Below, one piece after another: positions 8,484 to 32,466 of a stretch of DNA of 64,000 nucleotides. The stretch is from Chloroflexota bacterium (GTDB lineage Bacteria; Chloroflexota; Dehalococcoidia; DSTF01; RBG-16-68-14), in contig QIFC01000118.1 of NCBI GenBank assembly GCA_003228685.1, positions 16,578 to 80,577 of the forward strand, in the 5' to 3' direction. Position 1 is the first letter of the stretch. The number at the start of each line of letters is the position of its first letter. A model generated the notes under the pieces. That model had not been told where the DNA came from, did no database searches, and saw only the letters and a program-made list of their open reading frames with translations. The position numbers and the translations under genes were made by a program.

Positions 8484-8918
8484 ATGACGCTAACCGACGA
8501 GAACAAGGAGCGCATGACGAAGGTCATCGCGATGACGCCGTACATGGTGCACCTGGGGATGGAACTGGTCGACGCCAGCGACAGCTACGCGAAGCTGAAG
8601 CTGCGCTACCAAGATGAGAACTCGACGGCCGCGAAGGCGCTCCACGGCGGCGCGATCGCGTCGCTGATCGACACCACGGGCGCGATGGCTGCGTGGACAA
8701 CGGCTGAGATCGCTACGCCGAAGTACTTCGGTTCCACGGTGGGCGTCACCGTAAACTACCTCTCCGCCGTCATCGGTCAGGACTGCTTCGCCGAGGGCAC
8801 CGTGCTCAAGCGTGGCAAAGAGGTGATCTACGCCGAGGTGAAGGTCACCAACGCGGACGGAAAGCTCTGCGCGCAGGGGACCGTCATCTATCGGATAATC
8901 GAACGGGAGCCGCGCTGA
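8484..8918 (+). CDS. PaaI-family hotdog-fold thioesterase
   Basis: 144 aa. ...ALHGGAIASLIDTTGAMAAW... and ...GKEVIYAEVKVTNADGKLCAQGTVIY... are typical of PaaI/YbgC-like thioesterases. Confidence 0.8.
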   Translation: MTLTDENKERMTKVIAMTPYMVHLGMELVDASDSYAKLKLRYQDENSTAAKALHGGAIASLIDTTGAMAAWTTAEIATPKYFGSTVGVTVNYLSAVIGQDCFAEGTVLKRGKEVIYAEVKVTNADGKLCAQGTVIYRIIEREPR

Positions 8919-9476
8919 TGGCCGCCGTCACGCCTATCGAAACGCCGGACTCTCCAGAACTGCGCGAGTTCTACGATCGCATCGAGGGCACAAGCCAAGG
9001 CATGGGCGTCCTGAATGTGTTCAAGACCATGGCTCACACGCCAGACCTGATGCGATCGTGGTGCGGCATGATGGCCGTGCTCCTCGGCAGCCTCAAGCTG
9101 GAGCCCACGTTGCGCGAGCTGGCCATCCTGCGGCTCTTTCAGGTGAAACGCAGCGACTACGGCTTCGCCCACCATGTGCGCATCGCCAAGCTGATCGGGG
9201 TCAGCGACGAGCAGATCGCCGCGCTGAGCAGCCACGCGGACAGCGACCTGTTCTCCGATCTTCAGAAGGAGGTGCTGACGTACACGGACGCGGTGACGCG
9301 GCTGGAGGACGGCTCGAAGGCGCTCGCCACTCGGCCTCAGGGAGCATCTCTCCGAGCAGGAGCTGGTGGAGCTAACGTTCGTCATCGCGAACTGGAACCT
9401 GATGGCGCACTTGCTGCTGCCGCTCGAAATCGAACTAGAGGAGCCGGCGAAGGAGTTCCTGCCGGCGGACTGGTAG
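8918..9476 (+). pseudogene. Carboxymuconolactone decarboxylase (CMD/AhpD-like) family gene with a +1 frameshift
   Basis: The N-terminal 135 aa (..LRELAILRLFQVKRSDYGFAHHVRIA..YTDAVTRLEDGSKALATR) are CMD-like in frame 2. The conserved C-terminus LREHLSEQELVELTFVIANWNLMAHLLLPLEIELEEPAKEFLPADW* is in frame 0 (stop 9474-9476). The shift maps to 9297-9340. Confidence 0.7.
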
Positions 9477-9484
9477 GGCATATG

Positions 9485-9520
9485 GTCACTCTGAGTTCGC
9501 CGAAGGCGGACGAAGAGTCT
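9485..9520. repeat. GIY-YIG-associated repeat unit (long form)
   Basis: GTCACTCTGAGTTCGCCGAAGGCGGACGAAGAGTCT. It is near-identical to 10273..10308 and is the reverse complement of the 26-nt units, with 10 extra nt. Confidence 0.75.
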
Positions 9521-9536
9521 CTCTTGAGGCGATTAC

Positions 9537-9827
9537 ATGCGCGAGTTCTATGTGTACATCATGGCCAATCGCAGCAAGACGCTATACGTCGGCATGACGA
9601 ACAACCTGGAACGACGCGTGTCTGAGCACAGAGCAGGGCTATCGGCGTTCACCGCGAAGTATGCGATGAAGAAGCTTGTGTACCATGAGGCAACCAATGA
9701 TCCCCGGTCGGCGATTGCTCGCGAGAAGGAATTCAAAGGATGGCTTCGGAGCAAGAAGATCGCGTTGATCGAATCGGCCAATCCCGAGTGGGACGATCTG
9801 AGCGAGGCATGGGGACTTCGGCGATGA
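9537..9827 (+). CDS. GIY-YIG nuclease family protein (small, 96 aa)
   Basis: MREFYVYIMANRSKTLYVGMTNNLERRVSEHR... contains the GIY-(x10)-YVG motif and a conserved Arg/Glu. GC is lower than in the neighbouring genes. Confidence 0.85.
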   Translation: MREFYVYIMANRSKTLYVGMTNNLERRVSEHRAGLSAFTAKYAMKKLVYHEATNDPRSAIAREKEFKGWLRSKKIALIESANPEWDDLSEAWGLRR

Positions 9828-9918
9828 AGACTCTTCGCGGAGTTTATCCTAAGCGAAGACGAAGGGCTCAGAGTGCTAGCCAGACGCGGAGAAGACTCTT
9901 CGCTTCGCTCAGAGTGAC
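9828..9918. repeat. GIY-YIG-associated repeat units (two short-form copies, one interrupted)
   Basis: AGACTCTTCGCGG...GCGAAGACGAAGGGCTCAGAGTGC (9828-9876) and AGACTCTTCGCTTCGCTCAGAGTGAC (9893-9918). Confidence 0.65.
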
Positions 9919-9947
9919 GAGGCGGGAGTGAGGCGATCAGCACCGAC

Positions 9948-10202
9948 ATGCGTGAGTTCTATGTGTACGTCATGGCGAATCGCAGCAAGACGCTATACGT
10001 CGGCATGACGAACAGCCTGGAACGACGCGTGGCTGAGCACAGAGCAGGGCTATCGGCGTTCACCGCGAAGTATGCGATGAAGAAGCTTGTGTACCATCAG
10101 GCAACCAATAATCCCCGGTCGGCGATTGCTCGCGAGAAGGAATTCAAAGGATGGCTTCGGAGCAAGAAGATCGCGTTGATCGAATCGGCCAATCCCGAGT
10201 GA
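9948..10202 (+). CDS. GIY-YIG nuclease family protein, second tandem copy, shortened by a TGG->TGA change
   Basis: High nucleotide identity by eye (only scattered substitutions) to 9537..9827, at a 411-bp offset. It ends ...ESANPE* where copy 1 reads ...ESANPEWDDLSEAWGLRR. Confidence 0.75.
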   Translation: MREFYVYVMANRSKTLYVGMTNSLERRVAEHRAGLSAFTAKYAMKKLVYHQATNNPRSAIAREKEFKGWLRSKKIALIESANPE

Positions 10203-10428: not shown

Positions 10429-11511
10429 ATGGAATTCGGACTGCTGTACGAAATCGAGAAGACCCAACCGTGGGACGAGAACAGCCAGCGCAATGTGTTC
10501 ATGGAGTCGCTGGAGCAGATCAAGCTGGCTGAAGAAGTCGGCTTCGATTACGTCTGGGAGGTCGAGCACCACTTTCTGGGCGAGTTCTCGATCTCGTCGG
10601 CGCCCGAGGTCTTCCTGTCAGCCGTCAGCCAGCACACCAAGACGATCCGCATCGGGCATGGCGTCGTCCTGCTGCCGTTCGGCTACAACCACCCGATCCG
10701 CGTCGCGGAGCGGGCGGCGACGCTCGATATTGTGAGCAACGGGCGGCTGGAGTTCGGCACGGGCCGCTCGGCGACAAACTTCGAGATGGAGCCGTTCGGC
10801 GTCGACCCGGAGTCGAACCGCGACGAGTGGGACGAGGCCGTGCGCATGATCCCGAAGATGTGGACGGAGGACGAGTTCTCGTGGGACAGCGAGAAGATGA
10901 AGATCCCGCCCCGCAACGTCTTCCCCAAGCCGCTGCAGAAGCCGCACCCGCCGATGTGGATGGCGGGCACGCAGCCGTCATCGGCGTTCCTCGCGGCCGA
11001 GCGCGGGCTGGGCTTTCTGCACTTCAGCTACACGGACCCCGAAGCGCTAGACGAGAAGATCACGAAGTACCGCGAGGGCATCGAGAAGAGCGAGCCCGTC
11101 GGCAGCTTCATCAACAACAAGTTCGCCGCCTTCACGCTGATGCACTGCGGACGCGACGACAAGGAGGCGCTGGCCACCGGCGGCCCCGGCGCGGAGTGGT
11201 ACGTGCGCGCGACGAACATGCTCTACTCGTTCTGGGCGCAGTCAGACACGCCGTCCTACAAGTGGTACGCGGAGCAGTTCGAGAAGGGCAAGGCAGGCGC
11301 GGACGTCAATGTGGAGCAGATGGTGGACGACTCGGTCCTCTGCATCGGCGGGCCGGAGCGCTGCGCTCAGATCGCGGGCCACTTCCGCGACCAGGGCGTC
11401 GACCAACTGATCTTCCTGGTGCAGCACGGCCCGACCAAGCACGAGGCGATCCTGGATTCGCTGCGCCGCTTCGGCGAAGAGGTGATCCCACAGTTCAAGA
11501 ACGGCGCGTAG
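10429..11511 (+). CDS. LLM-class (luciferase-like) flavin/F420-dependent oxidoreductase
   Basis: 360 aa. MEFGLLYEI..., ...AEEVGFDYVWEVEHHF..., ...IVSNGRLEFGTGRS... are luciferase-like monooxygenase family features. Confidence 0.85.
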   Translation: MEFGLLYEIEKTQPWDENSQRNVFMESLEQIKLAEEVGFDYVWEVEHHFLGEFSISSAPEVFLSAVSQHTKTIRIGHGVVLLPFGYNHPIRVAERAATLDIVSNGRLEFGTGRSATNFEMEPFGVDPESNRDEWDEAVRMIPKMWTEDEFSWDSEKMKIPPRNVFPKPLQKPHPPMWMAGTQPSSAFLAAERGLGFLHFSYTDPEALDEKITKYREGIEKSEPVGSFINNKFAAFTLMHCGRDDKEALATGGPGAEWYVRATNMLYSFWAQSDTPSYKWYAEQFEKGKAGADVNVEQMVDDSVLCIGGPERCAQIAGHFRDQGVDQLIFLVQHGPTKHEAILDSLRRFGEEVIPQFKNGA

Positions 11512-11513
11512 CG

Positions 11514-12344
11514 TTAGGCTCGCTGGGCCGTCAGCAGCGAGCGCCGCAGCAGGCCAGCCTTAATCGACGCGAGAATCACTTCGCCCTCTACGATCTTTCC
11601 CTTCAGTGTGTCCTCGCCCATCGCCTGCGCCAGCTCGTCGAAGCGGCGGCGCCTGCCTTCCAGCCAGCCTTGCGCGGTCATTCGATACTGCTTCGTCACG
11701 TCGGTCTCATGAACATCGGTGAAGCCTGCCGACTCCAGCATCTCCGACGGCGAGCGCCTGCGCGTTGTGGCGGACGGCCAGAACTTCAGAATGCGACGAT
11801 AATCGGCGTCGCTCAGGTCATGCGGCGCGTAGATCGTGTAGCAGGCGATGCGGCCTTCTGGCTTGAGAACTCGGTGACAGGCTCTCAGCACGGAGAGCTT
11901 CGCGGGCACTCAGCAGAGGACGTCGCTGTGCACCAGCGCATCGAACGAGCGCGGGCGGAACGGCAGGGTCGAGCCGCCCGCGGCGATACCTTCGCTCCTC
12001 TTGTGCACACGGTCCTTGCGCGAACGCCGCCCGGCCTCATCTAGCGCGACGAGCGGCAAGTCTGCGAGCACTACCTGGCAGCCGCTGCGCTTGGAGAGAT
12101 AGAGGCCGGGCCAACCTCGGCCGGCGCCGAGGTCGAGGAGCCGCTTACTCCGCGTCAGGTCCAGATGATCTACGAGCGCGTCCGCTTGTTCTCGCGTCGT
12201 ATAGCTGTTGGCGCCATAGTCGCCGCCAATCACTTCGCGTTCTAGGGCGACTGTCGCTCGGTTCTGACCAGTCCCGTAGCGTTCTTCGAAGCGCTGCTTG
12301 GCGTCAGCCGTTGAGCGAATATTGCTCTTGCGCGGCGACGCCAT
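11514..12344 (-). CDS. Class I SAM-dependent methyltransferase with in-frame TGA (candidate selenocysteine, Cys-Sec dyad)
   Basis: ORFs 11910..12344 and 11514..11909 share one frame and are separated only by TGA (11912..11910): ...LLDLGAGRGWPGL (motif I)...FDALVHSDVLC-TGA-VPAKLSVLRACHRVLKPEGRI (motif post-II/III). A hairpin starts 11 nt after the TGA. Confidence 0.55.
11879..11900 (-). promoter_or_regulatory. Candidate bacterial SECIS hairpin for the TGA at 11912..11910
   Basis: mRNA UGA GUGCCCGCGAA GCUCUC CGUGCU GAGAGC. A perfect 6-bp stem (11898-11893 pairs with 11886-11881) and a 6-nt loop containing GU. The loop G is about 21 nt from the U of UGA. Confidence 0.5.
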
Positions 12345-12348
12345 CCCG

Positions 12349-13131
12349 TCAGCCCTTCGTGGCGGCCAGTGTTACGCCGCGGGTGTCGAACTCCTTGGCG
12401 TCGGATTCATGCTTAGAGCCGGAAAACACGTCCACCTGCTTGCCCCAGCGAAGGCCTGTGAAGTTTGCGTGGCTCACAATCCACTCCCACTCTGCTTCCA
12501 GCAGAGCACCGGCTATTCAGCCGGACCAGAGATCGATGTCGTCTTTCGCGTCTTGGTCGACGGGCTTCTGAACGACGATGTCCGCGATCTGGAAGCGACC
12601 GCCCGGCTTGATGATGCGATAGACCTCTTGCATGACGGTCATCTTGTCCGGGGTGAGATTGATGACGCCGTTGCTGATCACGACGTCGATCGAACCATCA
12701 TCCGCGGGCAGTTCCTCCGCGTAGCCGAGCTTGGCGTCGATGTTGGTGAGGCCGAGCGTCTCAGCGCCCAGACGCGTCTTCTCCAGCATCGCCTCCGTCA
12801 TGTCGAGAGCGATCACGTGGCCCGTGGGACCGACCTGCTTCGCGGCTTGCAGCGTGTCGAAGCCTGCCCCGCAGCCGATGTCGAGCACTGCCTCGCCCTC
12901 ATGTAGCTTGCCCAAGAGGAACGGGTTGCCCGTGCCGGCGAACGATTCTATAGTCGACTCCGGCAGCGCATTCACGTCCGCCTCTGGATACTCCAGCATC
13001 GCTGCCAGCGGGCGGCCTGTGTGGAAATGAAAGCCTTGTTCGGGCTTCTTCGCCACGTCGCAGTATTTCGCCTCGATCTGGTCGCGCAGTTGTTCGCGGT
13101 CTACCTTCGATGCGACGACTTCTAACACCAT
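12349..13131 (-). CDS. ArsM-like SAM-dependent methyltransferase with in-frame TGA at the conserved C-terminal Cys position (candidate selenoprotein)
   Basis: Listed ORF 12517..13131 ends ...DDIDLWSG-TGA. The same frame continues IAGALLEAEWEWIVSHANFTGLRWGKQVDVFSGSKHESDAKEFDTRGVTLAATKG* (stop 12351..12349), 4 nt before the next gene's ATG. LDIGCGAGFD is motif I. LWxG[C/U]IAGA is the ArsM-type motif. Confidence 0.65.
12488..12508 (-). promoter_or_regulatory. Candidate bacterial SECIS hairpin for the TGA at 12519..12517
   Basis: mRNA UGA AUAGCCGG UG CUCUGCU GGA AGCAGAG UG. A 7-bp perfect stem (12506-12500 pairs with 12496-12490) plus two G.U pairs. The apical GG is about 20 nt from the U of UGA. 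Confidence 0.55.
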
Positions 13132-13151
13132 TCCTGTCTCCTTTCCTACTG

Positions 13152-14522
13152 TCAGACGGCCGGCGCGGACTCTTGCAGGTAGCCTGCTTCTTCCCAGACT
13201 CCGAACCCACCGTCCAGATTCACAAGCGTCTTGAACCCGGCACGCTCAAGGATCGAGACCCCGCTGGACGACCGCTCTCCATGTCCGCAGTATGCAACGA
13301 TGGGCCGGTCTCTCGGCAGCTCTTCGACTCGCGCCTCCAGTTGCCCGAGCGGAATGCTGATAGCCTCCGCGACGTGACCGGCCGCGAACTCATCAGGCTC
13401 GCGGACGTCGAGGGCAAGCGCGCCATCGAGCAGGGCCTTCCGCGCCTCCGTGGCACCGGCGAGCGGAATCGTCGCGAGAGGCTTGTCAGCCTTCGCCCAC
13501 GCTTCAATCCCACCCTCCAGCCAGCCCGCAAACGTTTCATAGCCCACCAGCAGCGACTCTTCCTCGATACGCTCGAGCGGTTCGTCATCACGGACGAACA
13601 GGAGCGGCGCCCCCTCGGGTGCAAGCCATCCCAGCCAGATGGCATAGCTATCGCGAAACTCGTTGCTCAGTGAGCCAGGAATGTGCCCGGCCGCGTACGC
13701 CTCGGTGGCCCGCACGTCGACAACAAACGCCGCTTGCCTGGCGTAATCGAACGCGACGGGCATGAGCGCCGGCGCCGGCGGAATCTCCTCGCGCAGTCGC
13801 GGACCAGCCTGGTTGATCGGGCGCATCCGAGAGAAGTAGGCCGGTATGGCTGGGAACGTGGTCGGGAACCAGCGCACAAACTCATGCTCGTCTTCAGTCT
13901 GCAGCGCGGCGTTGTGCTGGCGCTCGAGGCCCAGCGTGGAGGTGCGCTCGGCACCCGGCACCGCGGAACAGAACGAGCCGCCGCCGTGGGTCGGATAGAG
14001 CAGCGTCTCGTCCGGCAGCGACGAAAACGCCGTCTTCAGCGTGCGGAACAGCCAGTGTGTCTGGCGTTCGGTCATCTCGGGCGCTATCAGGTCGGTCCTT
14101 GCCGCGCCGCCGACGATGAGCGAGCCGCCGCTAAATAGTGCGGGAGGCTCCTGACCCGCGCGGAGAGCGTAGCTCATATGCTCAGGCGTATGACCGGGAG
14201 ACGCAACGGCTTCGACTTCGACGCCGCCCAGTCCGAACAGCTCACCGGCCACGACTGGCCTGTGCGGAAAGCGAACCGCTGCCTCCTTTGGAGAGTAGAT
14301 CTCCGCGCCCGAGACTTGCGCAACGTCGCGCGCGCCAGAGACGAAGTCGGCGTGCAGGTGCGTCTCCAGCACCGTCCCGATATGCCAGCCGCGATCTTCC
14401 GCGGCGCGCACATACTGGTCAACGCTCCGCAAAGGGTCGATGAGCACAGCTTCATTGGTCCCTACCACCATCAGGTAAGCGCTGTTGCCTAACCCTTCGT
14501 GGACAAAAGGAATCACATTCAT
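13152..14522 (-). CDS. MBL-fold metallo-hydrolase (persulfide-dioxygenase-like) fused to two rhodanese domains
   Basis: The N-terminal ...TVLETHLHADFVSGA... is the HxHxD(H) MBL motif. The C-terminal rhodanese has active-site loop IVAYCGHGERSS. The middle rhodanese-like domain lacks the Cys. Architecture resembles Blh/CstB. Confidence 0.85.
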   Translation of the reverse strand: MNVIPFVHEGLGNSAYLMVVGTNEAVLIDPLRSVDQYVRAAEDRGWHIGTVLETHLHADFVSGARDVAQVSGAEIYSPKEAAVRFPHRPVVAGELFGLGGVEVEAVASPGHTPEHMSYALRAGQEPPALFSGGSLIVGGAARTDLIAPEMTERQTHWLFRTLKTAFSSLPDETLLYPTHGGGSFCSAVPGAERTSTLGLERQHNAALQTEDEHEFVRWFPTTFPAIPAYFSRMRPINQAGPRLREEIPPAPALMPVAFDYARQAAFVVDVRATEAYAAGHIPGSLSNEFRDSYAIWLGWLAPEGAPLLFVRDDEPLERIEEESLLVGYETFAGWLEGGIEAWAKADKPLATIPLAGATEARKALLDGALALDVREPDEFAAGHVAEAISIPLGQLEARVEELPRDRPIVAYCGHGERSSSGVSILERAGFKTLVNLDGGFGVWEEAGYLQESAPAV

Positions 14523-15787
14523 GCCAATACCTCCTTCTGCATCGGCGCTGCTGCCGGGCGTGCCCGGCCCAGTGTCACCGTTGCTATGATAGCCGACGCG
14601 GCAGTCAGCGCCGCAACCGCATAGATCGCTTGCTCAAAGCCCAGCAGGTCGGCCACGGCTCCCGCGCCGAGCGCCCCGGCGACGAACCCACCATCACGCC
14701 AAAAGCGATAGACGCCGACGGACGCGGCGCGCTCTTCAGGGTGCACTTCATCGCCGATAGCGGCGATCAGCGTTGGGTAGACGAGCGCGGTCCCCACGCC
14801 GAGCAACACGACCGCCACCAGCCAGCTACCGAACGAGCCGGCGATCGCGACCATCGCGATGGCGACGGCCTGCAGCAGCAGGCCACCAACAATAGCAGGC
14901 TTTCGTCCCACAATGTCGCTCGCCCAGCCGGTACCGAGCTGCAGGACGCCCCAGACGAAGGGATACGCGGCTGCCAGGATGCCGATCTGACCGAGGTCCA
15001 GTCCGCGACTGAAGAAGAACAGCGGAAGGATCCCCCAAGCCAGCCCGTCGTTGAGGTTATTCACGAAGCCCCCTTGCGACGCGCCGAACAAGCGCGGGTT
15101 GCGCCATGTGACGTCGGCAAAGCTTCGCGCAAGCGAACGCGGAGGCGGCCCGGCCGCGTGTCCATCCGCCTCCAGTGCGACGAAGGGCCGCGTGTCGTGT
15201 GCCAGAGCCGTGAGCGCCAGCCCGCCCGCGACGAGAGCGATCCCCAGGTAGAACGGCTCTGGCCGCAGTCCGTACTGCTCCGCGATCACGCCGGTGAGAT
15301 AGGCAGCGGCAGCAACAGCGACATAGCCGGCCGCTTCGTTCAGCCCAACCACGAATCCACGCTGCCTGGGGCCGGCCAGGTCCATTTTCATATTGACGGT
15401 CATGGACCAGGCGAGGCCTTGGTTTACGCCAAGCAGCAAATTCGCGCCGATCACCCAGCCCCAATTCGGCGCCCAGATGAGCATCAGGGGAACAGGGGCG
15501 CCCACGAGCCATCCGGCAATCAGGACCTTGCGCCTGGTCAACTTATCGGAGAGGGTGCCGGCGAAGAGGTTGGTGATTGCCTTGGCGAGCCCGAACGTCG
15601 CGATGAACGAGACGACGGCCGTCGTCGACGAGATGCCGAACTCGGCCTTGCCCAAGAGCGGAACGACAGAGCGCTCCATGCCGATCATGCCGCCGACGAA
15701 GGCGTTGACCGCCACCAGCAGCGCGATCTGCCGCCAGTTTTCGCGCACGCCGAGGGCGATCGATTTGCCTGTCTGTCGCACGGCCAT
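14519..15787 (-). CDS. MFS transporter
   Basis: 422 aa, about 12 predicted hydrophobic helices, with an MFS loop motif ...GTLSDKLTRRKV.... Its stop overlaps the start of the downstream MBL-rhodanese gene (ATGA). Confidence 0.85.
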   Translation of the reverse strand: MAVRQTGKSIALGVRENWRQIALLVAVNAFVGGMIGMERSVVPLLGKAEFGISSTTAVVSFIATFGLAKAITNLFAGTLSDKLTRRKVLIAGWLVGAPVPLMLIWAPNWGWVIGANLLLGVNQGLAWSMTVNMKMDLAGPRQRGFVVGLNEAAGYVAVAAAAYLTGVIAEQYGLRPEPFYLGIALVAGGLALTALAHDTRPFVALEADGHAAGPPPRSLARSFADVTWRNPRLFGASQGGFVNNLNDGLAWGILPLFFFSRGLDLGQIGILAAAYPFVWGVLQLGTGWASDIVGRKPAIVGGLLLQAVAIAMVAIAGSFGSWLVAVVLLGVGTALVYPTLIAAIGDEVHPEERAASVGVYRFWRDGGFVAGALGAGAVADLLGFEQAIYAVAALTAASAIIATVTLGRARPAAAPMQKEVLA

Positions 15788-15802: not shown

Positions 15803-16318
15803 TTAGGCGGCCTGCTCTTCGGCGGAACCGAACACCGTCCGGAGCGCCAGTTCGCGGTCACCGAAACAGTACTGGTAGATGAATGACGGGATGCAGAAGT
15901 GGGTGGTGCCAACAATGTATGCCACTGTCGTGAGCAGCGCCCCGAGCGCGTAACCCAGCGGAGCAACGCCCAGGTCGAACGACAACGCGATCGCGACTAC
16001 CCAGGGCGTTGCCAGCACACAAGCGAAGCGCGTAGGCGGACCGTTTAGCGGCAGTTTTCCCGTGCCGGTCAGGTGGCGCAGCCCATAGTTGTAGACGAGA
16101 TCGAGGGGATGGACCCTGAAGATCGCACCGGCTGCCGCTATCGGGACCATCGCCCAGAGCAGCGGTGTGAACGCGAATGCCGTCGCGATGCCGACGAGTG
16201 AACCGCAGAGAAGAAACGTCGTCCTGAACCAGGGCACCATCCTCAGGAATCCGGGATCGCTCGAAACGTTGTAACCCCGCACCTCCAGCCACGTTTGCAG
16301 TCTTGGTGAAAGAGCCAT
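15803..16318 (-). CDS. DUF4395-like membrane protein
   Basis: 171 aa, four hydrophobic segments. ...PTRFACVLATPWVVAI... and ...HFCIPSFIYQYCFG... resemble the DUF4395 family from memory. First gene of the minus-strand operon. Confidence 0.6.
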   Translation of the reverse strand: MALSPRLQTWLEVRGYNVSSDPGFLRMVPWFRTTFLLCGSLVGIATAFAFTPLLWAMVPIAAAGAIFRVHPLDLVYNYGLRHLTGTGKLPLNGPPTRFACVLATPWVVAIALSFDLGVAPLGYALGALLTTVAYIVGTTHFCIPSFIYQYCFGDRELALRTVFGSAEEQAA

Positions 16319-16443: not shown

Positions 16444-17115
16444 ATGGCGCATCGAGAGTTCAAGCAGAAGATCTACGCGGAATTCGCCCGCATCGGGAAC
16501 GCGCTTGGCAGCGCGCGACGGCTGGAACTGCTGGACATCCTCGCCCAAGGACCGCGCCACGTAGAGGCGCTCGCTGCCGAGACCGATATGACGGTCGCGA
16601 ACGTCTCGCAGCATCTGCAGGTCTTGCGGCAGGCCCGCCTTGTAGAGGCGGAACGCGAGGGCACGAAGGCGCTCTACCGCCTCGCCGACAGGCACGTTCT
16701 CGATCTGTGGCTCACGCTGCGGTCGGTCGCGGAAGAACGCCTCGCCGACCTCGGCCAACTCCGGCGCGACGTCGACGTCTACGATGAGGAGTCGCCGGTG
16801 CCGAGGGACGAGCTAGAGCGACTGCTCTTGGACCGGGACGCGGTGCTGATCGACACTCGCCCGAGCCGTGAGTACGAGCACGGCCATCTTCCGGCGTCGA
16901 TCTCGATGCCCATGGAAGAGCTGCCAGAGCGGCTCCACGAGCTGCCGAGAGACCGGCCGATCATCGCCTACTGTCGTGGCGACTACTGTCTCTTCGCGGA
17001 CGAGGCCGTCACGCTCCTGCGCGAGAAGGGCTTCGAGGCCCACCGCCTAGACGGCGGCTGGCCGGAGTGGTGGGCGGAAGACCGGGCGGTCGTGGGTGAT
17101 CCCGAGATAACCTGA
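16444..17115 (+). CDS. ArsR/SmtB-family transcriptional regulator fused to a rhodanese domain
   Basis: The N-terminal ...LGSARRLELLDILAQGPRHVEALAAETDMTVANVSQHLQVLRQARLVEAEREG... is an ArsR wHTH. The C-terminal rhodanese has IIAYCRGDYCLFADEA. Confidence 0.85.
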   Translation: MAHREFKQKIYAEFARIGNALGSARRLELLDILAQGPRHVEALAAETDMTVANVSQHLQVLRQARLVEAEREGTKALYRLADRHVLDLWLTLRSVAEERLADLGQLRRDVDVYDEESPVPRDELERLLLDRDAVLIDTRPSREYEHGHLPASISMPMEELPERLHELPRDRPIIAYCRGDYCLFADEAVTLLREKGFEAHRLDGGWPEWWAEDRAVVGDPEIT

Positions 17116-19253: not shown

Positions 19254-20396
19254 CTACCACTGCACCACCATGGGCATCAGCACGTGGACGAAGTCTTCTT
19301 CGCTGACGGGGCGGAGGACGCCCTGCCGGGAGGGGCCGCTCATCTCCAGCGAGACGCGGCCTCCCTCCAACACCTGCAGGTAGTCCTGCAAGTACTTGCT
19401 GTTGAACGCGATTTTGTCCGCTTCGCCTTCGATCGCGGCATCAATCTCACCGAGATTGTCGCCGATCTCCTCGGCACGGGCGGAGATGGTCATCTTGCCG
19501 GGCGCCACGTCCTCGCCCGGCGTGAACGTCAGGCGCACGATGCCACTGCCGTCGCGGGCGAAGATTGCTGCCGTGCGCGTCTCGCGCAGGAACTCGGCGA
19601 CGTCGATAACGGCCTTGCTCGTGTGGTCTTCCGGGATGATCTGGCTATAGTCCGGGAAGGTCCCCTGGATCAGTTGTGTCACCAATTCGACGTTCTTCAG
19701 CCGGAACAGCACCTGCGTCTTCGTGGAGTTGACTGAGAGTTGCACGGGATCCGACTCATCCGGCAGCAGCCTGCTCAGCTCGACGAGCGCGCGCGCCGGG
19801 ATGATGAGCTGGACCGCTTCGGAGACAGATTCCCCTAGCGTGAGGTGGCGGACCGACAAACGGAAGCCGTCCGTGGCGGCGAGCGTGAGCTGATCGCCCT
19901 CGATCGCGCAGTTCACGCCCACCAGCACAGGGCGCGAATCGTCGGTCGCGGCGGAGATCGCCACTTGTGAGATCGCCTTCTGCAGATCTTCCGGATCGAG
20001 CTGTAGCGACACACCATCTTCAACGCTCGGAATCGGGGGGAAGTCATCGGCGTCAACACCGCTCATCGTCGCCTGGCTGCGGCCGCAGACCAACTTGAGC
20101 TGGCGCGAACGCGGCGCCACCGTCATCTCGATCTTCTCGTTGGGCAGCGAGTTGACGAAGTCGGTCAGCAAGCGGGCTGGAACCGTAATGGCGCCCTCTT
20201 CTTCAACCTGAGCGCCGATCCAAGAGCTGAGGGCGATCTCCAGGTTCGTAGCCGCGAGCTTCAGGCGGCCATCTTCGGTGGAAAGGAGGACGTTTGCCGT
20301 AATCGGTAGCGTACTGCGAGCGGCAACGGCCCTGCCCACGATGCCGAGTCCTTTAGCGAGGTTTTCTTGCAGACAAGAGACGTTCATATTGTTCAC
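19254..20396 (-). CDS. dnaN: DNA polymerase III beta sliding clamp
   Basis: 380 aa. ...LQENLAKGLGIVGRAVAARSTLPITANVLLSTEDGRLKLAATNLEIA... and the C-terminal ...VLMPMVVQW are typical DnaN. Confidence 0.93.
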   Translation of the reverse strand: MNNMNVSCLQENLAKGLGIVGRAVAARSTLPITANVLLSTEDGRLKLAATNLEIALSSWIGAQVEEEGAITVPARLLTDFVNSLPNEKIEMTVAPRSRQLKLVCGRSQATMSGVDADDFPPIPSVEDGVSLQLDPEDLQKAISQVAISAATDDSRPVLVGVNCAIEGDQLTLAATDGFRLSVRHLTLGESVSEAVQLIIPARALVELSRLLPDESDPVQLSVNSTKTQVLFRLKNVELVTQLIQGTFPDYSQIIPEDHTSKAVIDVAEFLRETRTAAIFARDGSGIVRLTFTPGEDVAPGKMTISARAEEIGDNLGEIDAAIEGEADKIAFNSKYLQDYLQVLEGGRVSLEMSGPSRQGVLRPVSEEDFVHVLMPMVVQW

Positions 20397-26960: not shown

Positions 26961-27659
26961 TTAGGAGGACGTCAGATCGACGTCGCCGTTGCGCAGGTGG
27001 TGGGAGTCGTTCAGACGCTTCAGCATGCGCCGGTTCTCGAGCGAGGCGATCACGCTGATCGAGGTGTGGTCCGGCCCGAAGACGAAATCGTACGGCGACT
27101 TCACGACGTGGCTGACGTAGGCGTTGATCACGCCCGCGTGGCAAACGATGGCGATGCGCTCGGCGCGCTGCGTCCAGATCGCCTGCTCCACAGCGTTGAT
27201 CGCGCGGTTACGAAACTCGGCGCTGCCCTCTGAGTAGGGGTAGGCATCCGCCGTCTTCTCGCTGATCAGCCGCGATTGAAGCGCCCGCAGCAGTTCCCGC
27301 GTGATGTGCTTGTCCAGTGGCTGGTCGCCCGGCAGGTCGCGAAAGACCTCATGCTCGCGCAGGTCCTCGATGACTTGCGGCTCCAGGTCGTGATGCGACG
27401 TAAGGGCCAGCGCGGTATCGTGCGCGCGCTGGAGGTTGCTCGCGAACACAGCATCGAAGTGCACGCTGGCCAACGACTCACCCAACGCCTTCGCCTGCTG
27501 CCGCCCGCGCTCGCTGAGCGGCGGGTCGCGAAAGTCGGACGCGGTCTGCATGTCGCGGGTCTGCTCGCCGTGGCGAATTAGCAACACCTCCATGACCCCG
27601 TCGATCGCCAGATACATGCGGTCGAGCGGCGAAGGCCGTGGTCTCGGTTCTTCGGTCAT
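26961..27659 (-). CDS. Histidine phosphatase (phosphoglycerate mutase) family protein
   Basis: ...[10 protein letters not shown]... is the RHG catalytic motif, with a later H (..CHAGVINA..). ATG at 27659 overlaps the hemL stop (ATGA). Confidence 0.8.
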
Positions 27660-28951
27660 CTGCGCACCTCCTGGAACGCCTCCTCCGCGGCCGCGAGCGT
27701 CGTCTCGACGTCCGCATCGAGATGCGCGAACGACGTGAACCACGACTCGAACTGCGAAGGCGGCAGATAGACGCCGCGCTCGAGCATCGCGTTGAAAAAA
27801 CGCGCGTGGCGTTTCGTGTCGCAGCGCTTCGCGCTCGCGTAGTCAGTCACGGGGCTGTCGGTAAAGAAGAGTGTGAACATCGATCCCAGACGATTGATCT
27901 GCAGGTCGACCTCCGCGCGTTGCGCACGCTCGGCCAGGCCTTGGGCCAGCTTCTCCGTGAGGTCGTCGAGCGCGCGGTAGCCCGCGCCTTCCTTGAGGAT
28001 GCGCAGCGTGGCGATGCCGACGGCCATCGCCATCGGGTTGCCCGAGAGCGTTCCCGCCTGGTAGACGGGACCGGACGGGGCGATCTGCTCCATGATGTCC
28101 CGCCGCCCGCCGTAGGCGCCGACGGGCAGCCCTCCGCCGATGATCTTGCCGAGGCAGGTCAGATCCGGGCGCACGCCGTAGCGCTCCTGCGCGCCGCCCG
28201 GCCCGGCGCGGAAGCCCGTGACCACCTCATCGAAGATCAGGAGCGCGCCCGCCTCGCGCGTGATCTCGCGCAGGCCGGCGAGGAAGCTGTCCGCGGGCGG
28301 TACCACGCCCATGTTCGCGGCGACTGGTTCGACGATCAGGCAAGCGATCTCGTCCCGGTGCTGCTCGAAAACTGCGCGGACGGCATCGAGATCGTTGTAG
28401 GGAGCGAGCAGCGTCTGCTTGGCGTACGACGCCGGGACGCCGGGGCTGTCCGGCAGGCCGAGCGTCGCGACGCCGGAGCCTGCCTTCGCGAGCAGGCCGT
28501 CCGCGTGGCCGTGGTAGCCGCCTTCAAACTTCACGATCAGGTCGCGGCCTGTGAATCCGCGCGCCAGCCGCAACGCCGACATTGTCGCTTCCGTCCCTGA
28601 GTTGACGAACCGCACCATCTCGATCGATGGCACGGCGTCGACGACGAGCTGCGCCATCACAAGCTCCAGCTCGGTCGACGCGCCAAAGCTGGTGCCACGC
28701 TCGGCGGCTCGCTGGATGATCGCGATGATCGACGGATGCGCGTGGCCGAGGATCAGCGGCCCCCACGAGAGCATGTAGTCGATGTATTCGTTGCCATCGA
28801 CATCGAAGAGGCGCGCTCCCTTCCCATACGCGATGATGGGTGGCTCGCCGCCAACGGCCTGGAACGCCCGCACGGGGCTGTTCACGCCGCCCGGCATCAC
28901 TTCCTGCGCGGCGGCGAAGATCTTACGAGAGCGCGTACGATCGTCACTCAT
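27656..28951 (-). CDS. hemL: Glutamate-1-semialdehyde 2,1-aminomutase
   Basis: From ATG 28951: [38 protein letters not shown]...  matches the HemL N-terminus. Class III aminotransferase. The upstream 66 codons of the listed ORF look non-coding. Confidence 0.93.
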
Positions 28952-29007
28952 AGCTAGCACAGCTTCGCACAGATGGCGGCACGGCGCGAGGTGGAAGCTA
29001 GAGAAAT

Positions 29008-29724
29008 CTAGCCGACGAGCGAAACCAGATCGGTGAGCGACGTGATTGTGTGCTGTGGTGGCTCGATGTCGTCCGGCCAGGCCGCGTCGTGGCGATTGAT
29101 CCAGGCCTGGCCCATGCCGGCATTCCGTGAACCCTCGACGTCGGCCCACGGTGTGTCGCCGACATAGAGCGCCTCTGACGGCTGAATGCCCATGCGTTCG
29201 CAGGTCTCGCGAAAGATCGAGACGTGTGGCTTGTAGACGTTCAGTTCTTCGGAAGAAACCACGGTCTCGAACGTCAGGCCGTTCTTAGCGATACTGCCCT
29301 GCAAGAAGGCATCGTCTGCGTTTGAGAGGACGGCTAGCCGGCAGGAGCGGCCCAACTTCCGCAGCGTGTCGCGAACTTCGGGGTAGAGTTCCGCTTCGAT
29401 GTGGAGGGCGGTGTAGGCGTCTGCCCCTAGCTCACCTCCGGCTTCAACACCCCAGAATTGAAACAGTTCGCCGAATCGCTCACGCCAAGAGTCCCAGAAA
29501 GTGCGGAACTCGAACGGCTCGCCATCGGTTGCGGGTCTGGCGTTATGGCTGACGCCAAACCGTAGGTTCCAGTCACCCGACGTGTGCTCGATCCACTGCT
29601 GGTACGCCTCGCCGGGCGCTAGCTGATGACCAACATCGCGCGCGATACCGTCGAACATTCGCTGGCGCGGCGGCTCATGCAGCTGTGCCAACGTTTCGTA
29701 GTAGTCGAAGATGATGGCTCTCAT
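29008..29724 (-). CDS. HAD-superfamily hydrolase
   Basis: [12 protein letters not shown] (DxYxT variant of motif I)...VLSNAD...[12 protein letters not shown] (motif IV). Confidence 0.8.
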
Positions 29725-29730
29725 GGCGGC

Positions 29731-29770
29731 CACAGACGAACACAGATTGGCACAGATTGACGCAGATGAA
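29731..29770 (+). repeat. Four tandem decamers CACAGAYNNN (left island boundary)
   Basis: CACAGACGAA CACAGATTGG CACAGATTGA CGCAGATGAA. Confidence 0.85.
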
Positions 29771-29801
29771 TACTCCTTGAGGGAAGTGAAATTCTAGATA
29801 G

Positions 29802-30074
29802 CTACTCGACGAGCTTACTCGCCTCCCTGTAGATCGAACTCCTCGGGCCTACGAGTCGGACGACGAGTTCGTCCGGGTTGCCATCGTAAGTGTAGATTAT
29901 GCGATACCCGCCAATGCGCCTCTTGTAGAAGTCACCGAGATTCCCTTCAAGTGGATGATGAACAATTTCCGTGCGGTGCTTCCATATCCAGTCCGCCTTG
30001 TCCAAAATTCTCTTGACATCTTTGGAAGGAATGCCGCTTAGCGCGTCCTCGTGGATAAGCGGCTGTGTGCTCAT
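29802..30074 (-). CDS. RelE/ParE-family type II toxin
   Basis: ...HHPLEGNLGDFYKRRIGGYRIIYTYDGNPDELVVRLVGPRSSIY... is the canonical RelE/ParE C-terminal pattern. Its ATG overlaps the upstream gene's TGA (TGATG). Confidence 0.8.
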   Translation of the reverse strand: MSTQPLIHEDALSGIPSKDVKRILDKADWIWKHRTEIVHHPLEGNLGDFYKRRIGGYRIIYTYDGNPDELVVRLVGPRSSIYREASKLVE

Positions 30075-30799
30075 CAAGCAGTTGAATTCTTCCTGGCCTC
30101 ATCAAGAGACAAGAGCTTGCCTGTCTTCATTGACGCCTGAAGCCTCTCAGCAGTTTCTGGCCGAAGCTCCAAGTTCTCATCAGGGTCAGGCATCTTCTCT
30201 TCAAGTTCCTCGATGACGAGATGAAGCCTGTGCACCTCCTGCCGCAACGTAGGTATTTCTGCAAGACTGGTCGTTCTTGCTGACAGAATAAAGTCGTACT
30301 GATCCTTTGGAAAGTCATCCATCGCCTGGTAGCTGCCTTCGTATCCGACGGGTGCCGGCTCATCAAGCGACTGAAACTCAACAGTGAAGAACGGAGTGCC
30401 GAGGCTTAGGGTAATGGGTTCTGGCCCAACATTTAGCAGACTCAATGTGAGTCTGCCTTCGTAACCGGGATCAATTTGGGGGCCTCCGAAGGAGTTCATC
30501 CCCTTTCGAGCGAACTCTGAGCGAATCCCAATTTTGCCACAGATGCTCAATGGAAGTTGTACGCGTTCCTGAGAAATCGCAGCGACCATCTGGCCAGACT
30601 GCACCTTGTAGCTTGGGCTGTTGTCATTCAACTCAATCACAGCCCCGAGGATGTCTTGGCTTAGCGGACTTGCGAGAATTTTGGGGCCAAGAAGAAGATC
30701 GTAGCTGGCGGGCTGAACGAGGTCTTGGTCAAACGGCGACAGCACTAACTCGCCTGATTCGACCAAGCGGCGAATCTGCGAACCTGAGAGCATCCCCAT
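30074..30799 (-). CDS. dCTP deaminase/dUTPase-fold protein with about 80-aa coiled-coil/antitoxin-like C-terminal extension
   Basis: ATG at 30799 lies 6 nt after AAGGAGG. MGMLSGSQIRRLVESGELVLSPFDQDLVQPASYDLLLG...GIRSEFARKG...QIDPGYEGRLTLSLLNVGPEPITL...GSYQ align by eye with Dcd. The C-terminus reads ...LRQEVHRLHLVIEELEEKMPDPDENLELRPETAERLQASMKTGKLLSLDEARK. Confidence 0.75.
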   Translation of the reverse strand: MGMLSGSQIRRLVESGELVLSPFDQDLVQPASYDLLLGPKILASPLSQDILGAVIELNDNSPSYKVQSGQMVAAISQERVQLPLSICGKIGIRSEFARKGMNSFGGPQIDPGYEGRLTLSLLNVGPEPITLSLGTPFFTVEFQSLDEPAPVGYEGSYQAMDDFPKDQYDFILSARTTSLAEIPTLRQEVHRLHLVIEELEEKMPDPDENLELRPETAERLQASMKTGKLLSLDEARKNSTA

Positions 30800-30811
30800 C
30801 TCTAGCCTCCT

Positions 30812-30846
30812 TTGACAAAACAGCCCTAGGGCTGTACCCTGGTCAA
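30812..30846. promoter_or_regulatory. Nested palindrome upstream of the Dcd-like/RelE pair (candidate operator)
   Basis: TTGAC-AAA-ACAGCCCTAGGGCTGT-ACCCTG-GTCAA. The inner 16-bp perfect palindrome is at 30820-30835. It sits directly upstream of the RBS. Confidence 0.4.
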
Positions 30847-30945
30847 TGGAAACGACATAAATCCCCATTGGGTGCGGGGTAAAGCCCCAAGGCAGTGCCT
30901 ACCGGCCAGGGTAGGCATTTCGCTTTGTCTATCGGTAGTCTAACA

Positions 30946-31164
30946 CTAAGCAACCCGCCTGGTACAAGCTCTCAACGATTCGTAGTCTCCAACACGCATT
31001 TGCGCGAAGGCCTCCGCCTGCATCACCAGAACGCCAGTTAAGCAGAGCAACGAGATTTTCGCAAGCCCGCGACGGCAGCGCTGGCCGAGCTGATTGTGAA
31101 CTTCAAACGCTGAACCAACGATCTCACGAGTCAGCTCTTGATGTGGATACTTCTCCACCGCCAT
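30946..31164 (-). pseudogene. Degenerate GxxExxY-family (PD-(D/E)XK-like) gene remnant
   Basis: The N-terminus MAVEKYPHQELTREIVGSAFEVHNQLG matches the GxxExxY family start. After that, similarity jumps between frames (..CENLVALL.. in +2, ..VGDYESL.. in the original) and the ORF is only about 72 aa, against the ~125 aa I recall for the family. Confidence 0.5.
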
Positions 31165-31194
31165 ATTATCTGTGTCCATCTGTGAGAATCTGTG
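31165..31194 (-). repeat. Three tandem decamers CACAGATNNN (right island boundary, inverted relative to 29731..29770)
   Basis: The minus strand reads CACAGATTCT CACAGATGGA CACAGATAAT. Confidence 0.85.
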
Positions 31195-31206
31195 GCGAAG
31201 TTCAGC

Positions 31207-31440
31207 CTACGCTTCGAGGCCGAGGAATTCCTTCATCGCGCCGCGCAATTGCGCCCGATGCTCCGGCATGCCCAGGTTGAGGCCGTGGTGGTTGATGAGG
31301 TTGCCGGACATGGCGCGCCACTCGCCCCAGCAATCGGTGCAGATCGTCTCTACGATCTTCTCGCCGAGGGGGCCGCCCATCGGCGCTTCATCGATCTGCT
31401 CTTTGTCGTTGGCGCAGCGGTCACACTTGATAGTGGCCAT
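31207..31440 (-). CDS. yggX: Fe(II)-trafficking / oxidative-damage protection protein (YggX family)
   Basis: 77 aa. MATIKCDRCANDKEQIDEAPMGGPLGEKIVETICTDCWGEWRAMSGNLINHHGLNLGMPEHRAQL... parallels YggX (..W..W......LINE..LN......R..L). Confidence 0.7.
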   Translation of the reverse strand: MATIKCDRCANDKEQIDEAPMGGPLGEKIVETICTDCWGEWRAMSGNLINHHGLNLGMPEHRAQLRGAMKEFLGLEA

Positions 31441-31452
31441 GTAATCTCCTTC

Positions 31453-32466
31453 TTACGCGGAATGTTCCGCGGGATCGTCCGAAAGCCAGCGAGCGGCTTC
31501 CTTCGCGTGATAGGTGATGATGATGTCCGCGCCGGCGCGCTTGATCGACATGAGTATCTCCAGCACGACCCGGGATCCGTCCAGCCAGCCGTTACGCGCG
31601 GCCGCGTGGACCATGGAGTACTCGCCGCTGACGTTGTACGCGGCGAGCGGCAAGTCGAAGCTCTGACGCGCCCGCGAGAGCACGTCCAGGTACGCGAGCG
31701 CCGGCTTCACCATGACGATGTCCGCGCCCTCAGCGATGTCCGTCTCGATCTCCCGCAGCGCCTCGCGGACATTTGGCGGGTCCATCTGATAGCTGCGGCG
31801 GTCGCCGAACTGCGGCGCAGAATCGGCGGCCTCGCGGAACGGCCCATAGAACGCCGACGCGTACTTCGCGGAGTAGGCCATGATCGGCGTGCTGTCGAAG
31901 TTCCCGTCGTCTAGCGCGGAGCGGATGGCCGCGACGCGGCCGTCCATCATGTCCGACGGCGCGATGACGTCCGCGCCGGCTCGCGCGTGCGAGACCGCGG
32001 TGCGCGAGAGCAGGTCGAGCGAGCTGTCGTTGTCGATTTCGCCGTCGACGACCACGCCGCAGTGGCCGTAGGACGTGTACTCACAGAGGCAAACGTCCGT
32101 CATCACGACCAGGCCGCGGTCGGCGGCCTTCAGCGTGCGGACGGCCTCCTGGACGATGCCGCCGTCCGCGTAGGCCTCGCTGCCCTGTTCGTCCTTGGCG
32201 GCGGGGAGGCCGAACAGCAGGACGGCCGGCACGCCGAGTTCGCGTAGCTCCTCCGCCTCGCCGGCCAGCCGGTCGAGCGAGAGGTGGTACTGGCCGGGCA
32301 TCGATGGGATCTCTTCGCGCACGTTCTGCCCGTGCGTGACGAACAGCGGATAGACGAAGTCGTCCGGCCGCAGCGCCGTCTCGCGCACGAGCCGGCGCAA
32401 CCCTTCGCTGCCACGCAGGCGGCGGAAGCGCTCGATCGGAGGGTTCGTTGTGATGTCGACTGTCAT
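31453..32466 (-). CDS. hemB: Porphobilinogen synthase (delta-aminolevulinate dehydratase)
   Basis: 337 aa. ...[29 protein letters not shown]..., ...[14 protein letters not shown]... (Zn-Cys motif) and ...VKPA.... Confidence 0.93.

Follow-up and report, generated by a model that had tools for sequence, protein, structure and literature searches.

MT1, an ArsM-like gene in the 64,000-nucleotide stretch of DNA analysed here (the window), is a selenoprotein gene that has been miscalled as a 204-aa protein, and its in-frame TGA almost certainly specifies selenocysteine (Sec). The whole of 13131..12349 on the minus strand very probably encodes one 260-residue, SECIS-recoded selenoprotein with an ArsM fold and a single Sec; a function linked to sulfane sulfur or selenium is proposed for it tentatively (Table 1). 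Directly downstream lies MT2, a second methyltransferase gene with an in-frame TGA of its own.

Table 1. Features of the MT1 locus, in coordinates of the window
Feature	Position	Strand	Basis or remark
MT1, 260-codon CDS, ArsM-like SAM-dependent methyltransferase selenoprotein	13131..12349	-	ATG 13131; true stop TGA 12351..12349
Sec codon UGA, residue 205, UxxG motif (U-IAG)	12519..12517	-	position of ArsM Cys224
55-codon C-terminal extension past Sec, IAGALLEAEW...HESDA.EF.TRG...	12352..12516	-	conservation, pN/pS, model
MT1 bSECIS-type hairpin, 8-bp stem GCUCUGCU/AGCAGAGU, apical loop GGA	12489..12507	-	MFE, conservation, frozen codons
MT2, class I methyltransferase with in-frame TGA 11912..11910	11514..12344	-	TGA = second Cys of invariant HTDVL-CC pair
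MT2 bSECIS-type hairpin, GCUCUC, loop CGUGCU, GAGAGC	11881..11898	-	11 nt past UGA
Metallo-beta-lactamase fold with two rhodanese domains, upstream operon gene	13152..14522	-	Pfam; PDB relatives
MFS transporter, operon gene	14519..15787	-	Pfam MFS_1, E = 1e-42
DUF4395 membrane protein, operon gene	15803..16318	-	Pfam
ArsR-family HTH regulator fused to rhodanese, divergent	16444..17115	+	Pfam HTH_5 and Rhodanese

The listed MT1 ORF (13131..12517) ends with ...KDDIDLWSG at the first TGA. Beyond it the same frame runs on for 55 codons (IAGALLEAEWEWIVSHANFTGLRWGKQVDVFSGSKHESDAKEFDTRGVTLAATKG) until a second TGA, which is followed after 4 nt by the ATG of MT2; the initial annotation had described both the reopened frame and the short spacer, and its coordinates for them are confirmed. 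Read through, the product spans the site as ...DLWSG-U-IAGALLEAEWEWIVSHANFTGLR. Relatives of 74–100% identity are without exception called as 204 aa and end at the same TGA, and those of 58–70% identity are 260–265 aa long, carry Cys at the TGA column, conserve the extension and cover 100% of MT1. Cys occupies this column in 17/17 aligned full-length homologues (context LWS[NS]C-IAGAL) and in 24/24 sequences of a second alignment (A5), and in solved ArsM structures (5evj and 4fr0) its counterpart is the Cys of GEC-LAGAL, as expected from the earlier proposal that the TGA falls on the family's conserved C-terminal Cys.

Of the 53 best species-representative loci, 51 have TGA at the Sec column and just two (L017 and L039) have TGC. 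The TGA-bearing loci span Chloroflexota, Gemmatimonadota, Acidobacteriota, Actinobacteriota, Proteobacteria and Neomarinimicrobiota, and a further, weaker match in an NC10 locus (L078) has TGA too, making Sec the predominant form of the MT1 subfamily in many phyla. Among 12 diverse loci checked, the frame closes 56–58 codons past the TGA in all. In MT1 an in-frame UGA stands where homologues that are not selenoproteins have Cys, selected coding sequence continues past it, and orthologues in other organisms carry the TGA too. Two comparative checks had been proposed with the initial reading of the TGA as Sec. The first, alignment of Cys homologues across the TGA together with a conserved extension, is answered by the relatives of 58–70% identity; the second, conservation in relatives, by the persistence of TGA, extension and hairpin in related and distant genomes. 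Comparative and SECIS evidence together support that reading.

MT1 matches Pfam Methyltransf_31 (E = 5e-33) as well as Methyltransf_25 and Methyltransf_11. An AF2 model of its Cys homologue P0018 is confident along the whole length (overall pLDDT 93), and in Foldseek the top 13 matches of this model are ArsM/AS3MT (TM 0.62–0.71), which assigns MT1 an ArsM-type class I SAM-binding fold. The equipment of this fold with cysteines differs from that of ArsM. FAGTGNP of MT1 aligns with FWGCGNP, and ISNGVINL with ISNCVINL, so that, relative to solved ArsM structures, Cys72 is exchanged for Thr and Cys174 for Gly; GFHFHTG probably takes the place of the two cysteines near the N-terminus of bacterial ArsM. 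Of the four ArsM cysteines just the last is kept, and this holds for the whole subfamily (FAGTGNP, ISNGV.N, LW.G-U-IAG), which bears out the initial description of a protein lacking the other ArsM cysteines and left with a single selenol. A published filter for ArsM demands at least three of the four conserved Cys (CmArsM 44, 72, 174 and 224) (PMC5552862); MT1 has the 224 equivalent alone, as Sec. Against the NCBIfam arsenite methyltransferase model NF008823 it scores 214.1 bits, below the cut-off of 263, and PRK11873 matches with E = 2.5e-63, such that naming by CDD/PRK11873 would label MT1 an ArsM.

The genes around MT1 were compared across 62 loci. The best PDB relatives of the upstream metallo-beta-lactamase–rhodanese protein are 3tp9 (E = 2.5e-77) and 3r2u, followed by BpPRF (5ve3) and ETHE1 (4chl); 3r2u is, we presume, the persulfide dioxygenase-sulfurtransferase CstB. 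This gene recurs near MT1 in 13/62 loci, an MFS gene lies within 6 kb in 17/62, and the ArsR–rhodanese gene adjoins MT1 in 19/62 loci from several phyla, an association that is recurrent and not universal. A DUF4395 gene also stands beside Cys-form MT1 in two loci (L086 and L017). TusA, DsrE and 1-Cys Prx are neighbours at related loci. The HTH part of the divergent regulator is devoid of Cys, and its rhodanese loop reads CRGDYC. The ArsR–rhodanese regulator, the CstB-like protein, the MFS transporter and the TusA/DsrE/Prx neighbours point away from classical As(III) detoxification and towards species of sulfane sulfur or selenium.

These observations bear on the possibility that MT1 is a canonical ArsM with Sec in place of Cys224, methylating As(III)/MAs(III) in company with an ArsR repressor and an MFS arsenical exporter. 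Its best solved relatives are ArsM/AS3MT, its best NCBIfam matches are ArsM-type models, an ArsM with Sec at UxxG is a catalogued selenoprotein, an ArsR-family regulator and an MFS gene adjoin MT1, and ArsR, ArsM and MFS also make up a classical ars layout. We nevertheless regard this as improbable, given the loss of three of the four defining Cys, the sub-cut-off score, a regulator with a rhodanese domain in lieu of HTH cysteines, and CstB-like, TusA, DsrE, Prx and rhodanese neighbours, with no arsC or acr3 seen among the genes scanned around MT1. Arsenite is doubtful as a substrate because MT1 has one of the four ArsM Cys, scores below the cut-off and is surrounded by sulfane-sulfur genes.

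A SECIS-like hairpin after the UGA, which the initial annotation had pointed out, is recovered. It begins 9 nt past the UGA, with GCUCUGCU at 12507..12500, GGA at 12499..12497 and AGCAGAGU at 12496..12489, giving a UGA-to-loop spacing of 17 nt, and it folds with an MFE of −10.3 kcal/mol (z = −3.1; 2/200 shuffles fold as well). The consensus model of the bacterial SECIS, as summarised in PMC13188914 (Fig. [quoted passage not shown] As in the consensus, the hairpin is inside the coding region, directly past the UGA, with a G early in the apical loop. Its sequence, by comparison, is family-specific: a scan of the whole window at the gathering threshold, and of 11400..13300 at E up to 10, returned neither SECIS nor any other relevant Rfam family, and recruitment of SelB is putative.

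A perfect hairpin of at least 7 bp, 6–14 nt downstream and with a G in the loop, follows 8 of the 1641 TGA trinucleotides in the window. Taken by itself the MT1 hairpin is an event of about 0.5% by chance, and the comparative data make the case far stronger. In 30 loci of the Sec form, pairing holds in 94% of cells, and three pairs show compensatory changes (L050, L056 and L037); this covariation is limited, the signal being mostly conservation, with only 5 cells altered on both sides. The hairpin codons have a pS of 0.19, versus 0.55–0.65 elsewhere, and the wobble positions of the stem are frozen whereas those just upstream vary freely. The hairpin was not found in the four Cys-form genes examined. 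A separate CCGGCU/AGCCGG mini-hairpin around the UGA was set aside, as it is not conserved in L001.

MT2 is annotated as two split ORFs, and its family is common in metagenomic contigs. As an independent instance within one operon, it also speaks for Sec decoding of MT1. Across its Sec site it reads ...HSDVLC-U-VPAK (a 'CU' motif), and in metagenome loci the two codons are C-TGA in 57 cases, TGA-TGA in 11, TGA-TGC in 4 and TGC-TGC in 6. The downstream hairpin has an MFE of −7.8 kcal/mol; in 67 distinct Sec-form sequences its stem pairs are 93–100% paired and its wobble positions frozen, with one compensatory change from U-A to G-C, and six Cys forms have other codons at the hairpin. The genomic context of the Cys form P0121 shows no link to the module described below. 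Given the 4-nt spacer, MT2 is probably translationally coupled to MT1. MT2 was not found among the NCBIfam selenoprotein models or in the 119-family catalogue of 2026. Like MduS (NF045649; 338 aa, CxxU motif, two Sec), it is a class I methyltransferase domain with Sec, but it scores 28.7 bits against that model's cut-off of 380, has about 275 aa and carries its CU/UU/UC pair past beta-4.

UGA reassignments exist in some bacteria, and MT1 could in principle be completed by read-through, or by UGA coding for Trp, Gly or Cys, with no Sec machinery involved. The one observation in favour is that selA, selB, selC and selD were not seen in the 64 kb of the window or in the 1.2 Mb of flanking sequence retrieved. 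ARAGORN, which may miss tRNASec of the 8/4 type, detected no tRNA at all in the window, nor a tRNASec in the 1.2 Mb of loci; phmmer with approximate E. coli SelD and SelA queries gave no match in any ORF of the window or loci; and NCBIfam identified no sel genes among ten large unassigned ORFs of the window. The literature reports both tRNASec (8/4 type) and selenoproteins in Chloroflexi. TGA is the stop of 22/60 predicted genes in the window, and MT1 and MT2 are the only convincing same-frame coding pairs split by TGA, which indicates that the code is not reassigned. Two further same-frame pairs, at 44805 and 21315, were rejected for being antisense to better ORFs. At each of the two interrupted sites the homologues have an invariant Cys, and each site is followed by a hairpin at SECIS spacing, with synonymous sites there frozen in the TGA forms alone. 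Decoding of this UGA as anything other than Sec is accordingly a very remote prospect.

Relative to 19 Chloroflexota orthologues (NG86), the extension has a pN of 0.23 and a pS of 0.65, and the sequence upstream of the TGA 0.19 and 0.55; the extension evolves like coding sequence, under purifying selection and in the same regime as the part upstream. A nonsense pseudogene or a genuine 204-aa protein, with the 55 codons left over as decaying sequence or forming a small ORF of their own, is scarcely credible and already contradicted by the data: gene callers do give 204 aa, a GTG-initiated ORF (12477..12349) is possible within the extension, one locus (L004) has a separate 42-aa ORF and one relative (L013) an extra TAA inside the extension, but more than 50 independent assemblies from different phyla have the same TGA, purifying selection acts on the extension, the P0018 model folds it with confidence as part of the domain itself (helix, strand, helix, strand; ten-residue-block mean pLDDT 85–97), and the next gene begins 4 nt past the second stop.

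In the preferred reading, that of a recoded 260-residue selenoenzyme, the hairpin would recruit SelB and Sec-tRNASec, by analogy with established bacterial Sec decoding; UGA-205 would be read as selenocysteine and the ribosome would continue to the stop at 12349. By homology with ArsM Cys224, the selenolate probably binds a soft metalloid or chalcogen substrate for methylation from SAM, although such a methyltransferase function is assigned here with low certainty. Tentatively, MT1 and MT2 might form an unrecognised two-selenoenzyme methylation module acting on sulfane sulfur or selenium, controlled by the ArsR–rhodanese regulator, coupled to CstB-like, TusA, DsrE and MFS proteins, and selenium-gated; we consider this possible rather than likely. 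Such a module could, for example, methylate persulfide or selenide stepwise to volatile or exportable species, and, if it exists, the two UGA codons would make the output of full-length MT1 and MT2 depend on selenium supply.

MT1 and many of its orthologues are deposited as 204-aa 'methyltransferase domain-containing proteins', an annotation that the Sec reading corrects, and recognising both MT1 and MT2 as selenoproteins does the same for a widespread gene pair. Labelling of MT1-like proteins in metagenomes as ArsM by similarity may lead to arsenic-methylation potential being overstated. The Sec-dominated MT1 and the CU/UU MT2 family also enlarge the small set of non-redox selenoenzymes, and provide a concrete enzyme pair for testing chalcogen or metalloid methylation.

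Selenoproteins of the MT1 kind are already known, both from catalogues (since 2007–2008) and from NCBIfam, and the novelty attributed in the initial annotation to a Sec enzyme of the ArsM family was overestimated. ArsM with Sec at UxxG, the very position at which MT1 has U-I-A-G in place of the conserved C-terminal Cys, appears in the catalogues of Zhang & Gladyshev 2008 (PMC2398784) and of Peng et al. 2016 (PMC5029168), and a 2026 review (PMC13188914) lists an arsenite methyltransferase selenoprotein as 'experimentally verified'. MT1 resembles the catalogued Sec-ArsM (NF008823/PRK11873; WP_011987699.1) in fold, Sec position and recoding logic, and differs in the three missing Cys, the length of about 260 aa, the sub-cut-off score and the sulfur-trafficking neighbours; this comparison was made by family and motif, and the two may belong to the same subfamily. 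The best NCBIfam models over the methyltransferase domain are NF041537 (ArsM/AhpD), NF041536 (ArsM/DUF2284) and NF047649 (methyltransferase/UXPK-star), families for which the review cites Haft & Tolstoy 2025. They share the UxxG Sec motif with MT1, which scores 207–220 bits against cut-offs of 460–575 and lacks a fused AhpD or DUF2284 domain, a second Sec and the UXPK C-terminus; the MT1 family ends instead in ...[AR]KP-x-stop.

At the level of the locus, the closest likeness is to the CstR–CstB and BigR–Blh persulfide-response operons, with which the MT1 locus has in common a metallo-beta-lactamase protein with two rhodanese domains, an ArsR-family regulator and a transporter, and related MT1 loci also TusA, DsrE and Prx. 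BigR carries a Cys pair, where the regulator of the MT1 locus has a rhodanese domain instead. To our knowledge, the known operons of this type contain neither methyltransferases nor selenoproteins.

MT1, the ArsM-like methyltransferase gene, starts at an ATG with GGAAAGGAG just 5' of it, and its first ORF ends at ...KDDIDLWSG with a TGA; past this the frame stays open for 55 further codons and closes at a second TGA, 4 nt short of the start codon of the following methyltransferase gene, MT2, as the initial annotation described. The read-through product was searched, with Cys substituted for Sec, against 5.8 billion proteins. Relatives at 74–100% identity were all annotated as 204 aa, ending at the same TGA site, and those at 58–70% identity were 260–265 aa with full query coverage. 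Every aligned full-length homologue carries Cys at the TGA column (LWS[NS]C-IAGAL), followed by the strongly conserved extension (EW, RWG, DV[FY]SGS.HESDA.EF.TRG) that the initial annotation had anticipated. The AlphaFold2 model of P0018, a Cys homologue 69% identical to the MT1 product, has a mean pLDDT of 93. Beyond Cys205 the chain forms a helix, a strand, a second helix and a second strand, and the 13 top-ranked PDB hits of the model are all ArsM/AS3MT (TM 0.62–0.71).

A scan using one genome per species returned 80 MT1 loci, of which the best 53 span 46–74% identity and carry TGA at the Sec column in 51 cases and TGC in 2 (L017, L039). By record titles, the loci derive from Chloroflexota, Gemmatimonadota, Acidobacteriota, Actinobacteriota (Rubrobacter, Ilumatobacter, Acidimicrobium), Proteobacteria and Neomarinimicrobiota; an additional weaker match from NC10 (L078) has TGA too. 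The frame closes 56–58 codons past the TGA in 12/12 diverse loci inspected, with TGA, TAA or TAG as stop. Comparing the window with 19 Chloroflexota orthologues by Nei-Gojobori counts gave pN 0.19 and pS 0.55 for the 120 codons 5' of the TGA, and pN 0.23 and pS 0.65 for codons +12 to +50 past it (dN/dS 0.03–0.35). These extension values, together with retention of TGA and extension in distant phyla and in L001 (74% identical, in another neighbourhood, after dnaN), argue against a nonsense pseudogene. One Dehalococcoidia orthologue (L013:10613-10790), in which a TAA follows the Sec TGA 37 codons on, within the conserved HESDA motif, is either truncated or decaying, or else reflects misassembly.

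The MT1 hairpin, GCUCUGCU-GGA-AGCAGAGU, begins 9 nt 3' of the first UGA (MFE -10.3 kcal/mol, z = -3.1). With a spacing of 17 nt, it lies within all published bSECIS constraints: a loop of 3–9 nt with G among the first two, a stem of 4–16 bp, a spacing of 16–37 nt and MFE <= -7.5 kcal/mol (PMC13188914). By itself it is uncommon and not decisive, because perfect hairpins (at least 7 bp, G in the loop, 6–14 nt downstream) stand behind 8 of the window's 1641 TGA trinucleotides. Those behind the four TGAs tabulated below are probably terminators or chance matches. The element recurs in 30 Sec-form MT1 loci as UGA, 9 nt, an 8-bp stem and a loop of GGA or UG[GU]A[ACU]. Stem cells are paired in 94%, versus 26–58% with 3' partners slid, and two-sided changes occur at three stem pairs (L050, G-C to C-G; L056, G-C to A-U and C-G to U-A; L037). 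In-stem wobble positions (alignment columns 15, 18, 27, 30) are 93–97% conserved (28–29/30 sequences) and column 21, just within the loop, at least 90%; the three codons preceding the stem vary freely at their wobble positions (columns 6, 9, 12). Among the 19 orthologues, pS is 0.19 across the hairpin codons versus 0.55–0.65 elsewhere. The four Cys-form genes examined have no such hairpin and use different codons in the same region. The proposed bSECIS-like character is thus borne out, and the Cys column, the 51/53 TGA count, the pN/pS values and the hairpin together make it very probable that the original reading of the MT1 TGA as Sec is right.

In nearly all MT1 Sec forms the residue before UGA is Gly, or Ala (LW.G-U), and the base 3' of it is A without exception (alignments A1, A2; L006-L058); in most Cys forms the preceding residue is Asn or Ser (LWS[NS]-C; A1, A2). 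Codon context acting on recoding could explain this, as could structural adaptation to Sec. HESDA (residues 241-245), past Sec in the extension, is invariant (A1, A5); with GFHFHTG (residues 33-39) and Sec205 it may make up a new site for a metal or the substrate.

UGA is very unlikely to be reassigned here: TGA ends 22 of the 60 predicted genes in the window, and of all cases where a single TGA divides two same-frame ORFs, MT1 and MT2 alone are coding-type in composition on both sides and not antisense to a better gene. No tRNASec, selA, selB or selD was found within the 64-kb window or the fetched flanks; tRNASec and selenoproteins are known from Chloroflexi in the literature, including an 8/4 tRNASec form that may escape standard tRNA finders.

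MT2 reads ...HSDVLC-TGA-VPAKLSVLRACHRVLKPEGR at its site, and the motif in its full-length homologues (38–50% identity) is H[TS]DVLCC, in which the first Cys never varies and the second is at least 90% conserved. Across 81 loci (80 from the metagenome scan plus L088), the site is TGY-TGA (CU) in 57, TGA-TGA (UU) in 11, TGA-TGC (UC) in 4 and TGC-TGC (CC) in 6, with 3 unmatched by the search pattern; Sec-type thus stands against CC at 72 to 6. In 67 distinct Sec-form sequences the hairpin stem is 93–100% paired with frozen wobble positions, and 2 carry a compensatory U-A to G-C change; the six Cys-form genes use different codons across this region. Loci bearing on the family are L004, L005 and L089-L168. 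MT1-type genes accompany MT2 at 13/81 loci, and MFS, ArsR-rhodanese and CstB-like genes co-occur with it too.

Positions of features in the window
Feature	Position	Strand	Remark
MT1	12349..13131	-	ATG 13131; 260 codons
MT1 candidate Sec TGA	12519..12517	-	
MT1 hairpin	12507..12489	-	
MT1 second TGA	12351..12349	-	
MT2	11514..12344	-	
MT2 in-frame TGA	11912..11910	-	
MT2 hairpin, GCUCUC-CGUG(C/U)U-GAGAGC	11898..11881	-	11 nt past UGA; near-invariant in Sec forms
TGAs before perfect hairpins	63240, 27994	+	8–10 bp
TGAs before perfect hairpins	49270, 40853	-	8–10 bp
dnaN and haem-biosynthesis cluster	19254..20396 and 27656..37139		near MT1
CMD/AhpD-like ORF	8918..9625		3' half non-coding in appearance
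GIY-YIG ORFs	9537..9827 and 9948..10202		region 8918..10202
Tandem paralogous ORFs	43527..44273, 44518..45255, 45609..46313	+	

The operon runs DUF4395, MFS, MBL-rhodanese-rhodanese, MT1, MT2, and a gene for an ArsR-rhodanese regulator is oriented divergently from it. The MBL-rhodanese protein has as closest PDB relatives 3tp9 and 3r2u, the latter presumably CstB, and next BpPRF (5ve3) and ETHE1 (4chl). Within 6 kb of MT1, ArsR-rhodanese genes occur at 19/62 loci, MFS at 17/62 and a CstB-like gene at 13/62; at the Cys-form loci L086 and L087 there are also genes for 1-Cys Prx, TusA, DsrE and a single rhodanese. Such surroundings match the handling of sulfane sulfur or chalcogens better than they match an ars operon. 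TusA, DsrE, 1-Cys peroxiredoxin and single-domain rhodanese genes occur in the MT1 flanks at L086, L087, L017 and L007 (several Cys-form, one Sec-form), with the ArsR-rhodanese regulator on one side of them and the CstB-like and MFS genes on the other, in what looks like a recurrent sulfane-sulfur module. The window's haem cluster comprises hemL and ORFs read as hemA, hemC, a hemD-type methylase and hemB from size and synteny with L001, where MT1 immediately follows dnaN and sulfur-module genes are absent.

Elsewhere, the two small GIY-YIG ORFs are nearly identical and adjoin the CMD/AhpD-like ORF; they may be a mobile insertion, since the CMD gene is intact in syntenic L004. The three tandem paralogues have Arg-rich N-termini (MSRE[KR]RR.GS.R) and Cys-containing C-termini (C.F.PEG..C).

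Compared with solved ArsM structures, MT1 has FAGTGNP for FWGCGNP, ISNGVINL for ISNCVINL and SG-U-IAGAL for GEC-LAGAL, and GFHFHTG stands where bacterial ArsM has its N-terminal Cys pair. With T, G and GFHFHTG at the other positions, MT1 therefore keeps one of four ArsM cysteines, as Sec, consistent with the single-selenol divergent paralogue initially envisaged; FAG[TV]GNP and ISNG[VA].N are kept in all best 53 of 80 loci. A published ArsM filter demands at least 3 of 4 cysteines (PMC5552862), and MT1 scores 214 bits against the NCBIfam arsenite methyltransferase model (cut-off 263) and 207–220 bits against the ArsM-type selenoprotein models (cut-offs 460–575). The ArsM label is doubtful for this cysteine-poor subfamily. 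MT2 is claimed by no NCBIfam model, selenoprotein ones included, and an MT2-like methyltransferase is not among the 119 prokaryotic selenoprotein families of the 2026 catalogue (PMC13188914). ArsM-family selenoproteins with Sec at the same UxxG motif have been catalogued since 2007–2008 and are marked experimentally verified in that review (PMC13188914), and related ArsM-type fusion selenoprotein families are present in NCBIfam. As its kind is already known, MT1 is a new, mis-annotated member; greater novelty attaches to the neighbouring MT2 family and to the recurrent two-selenoenzyme module.
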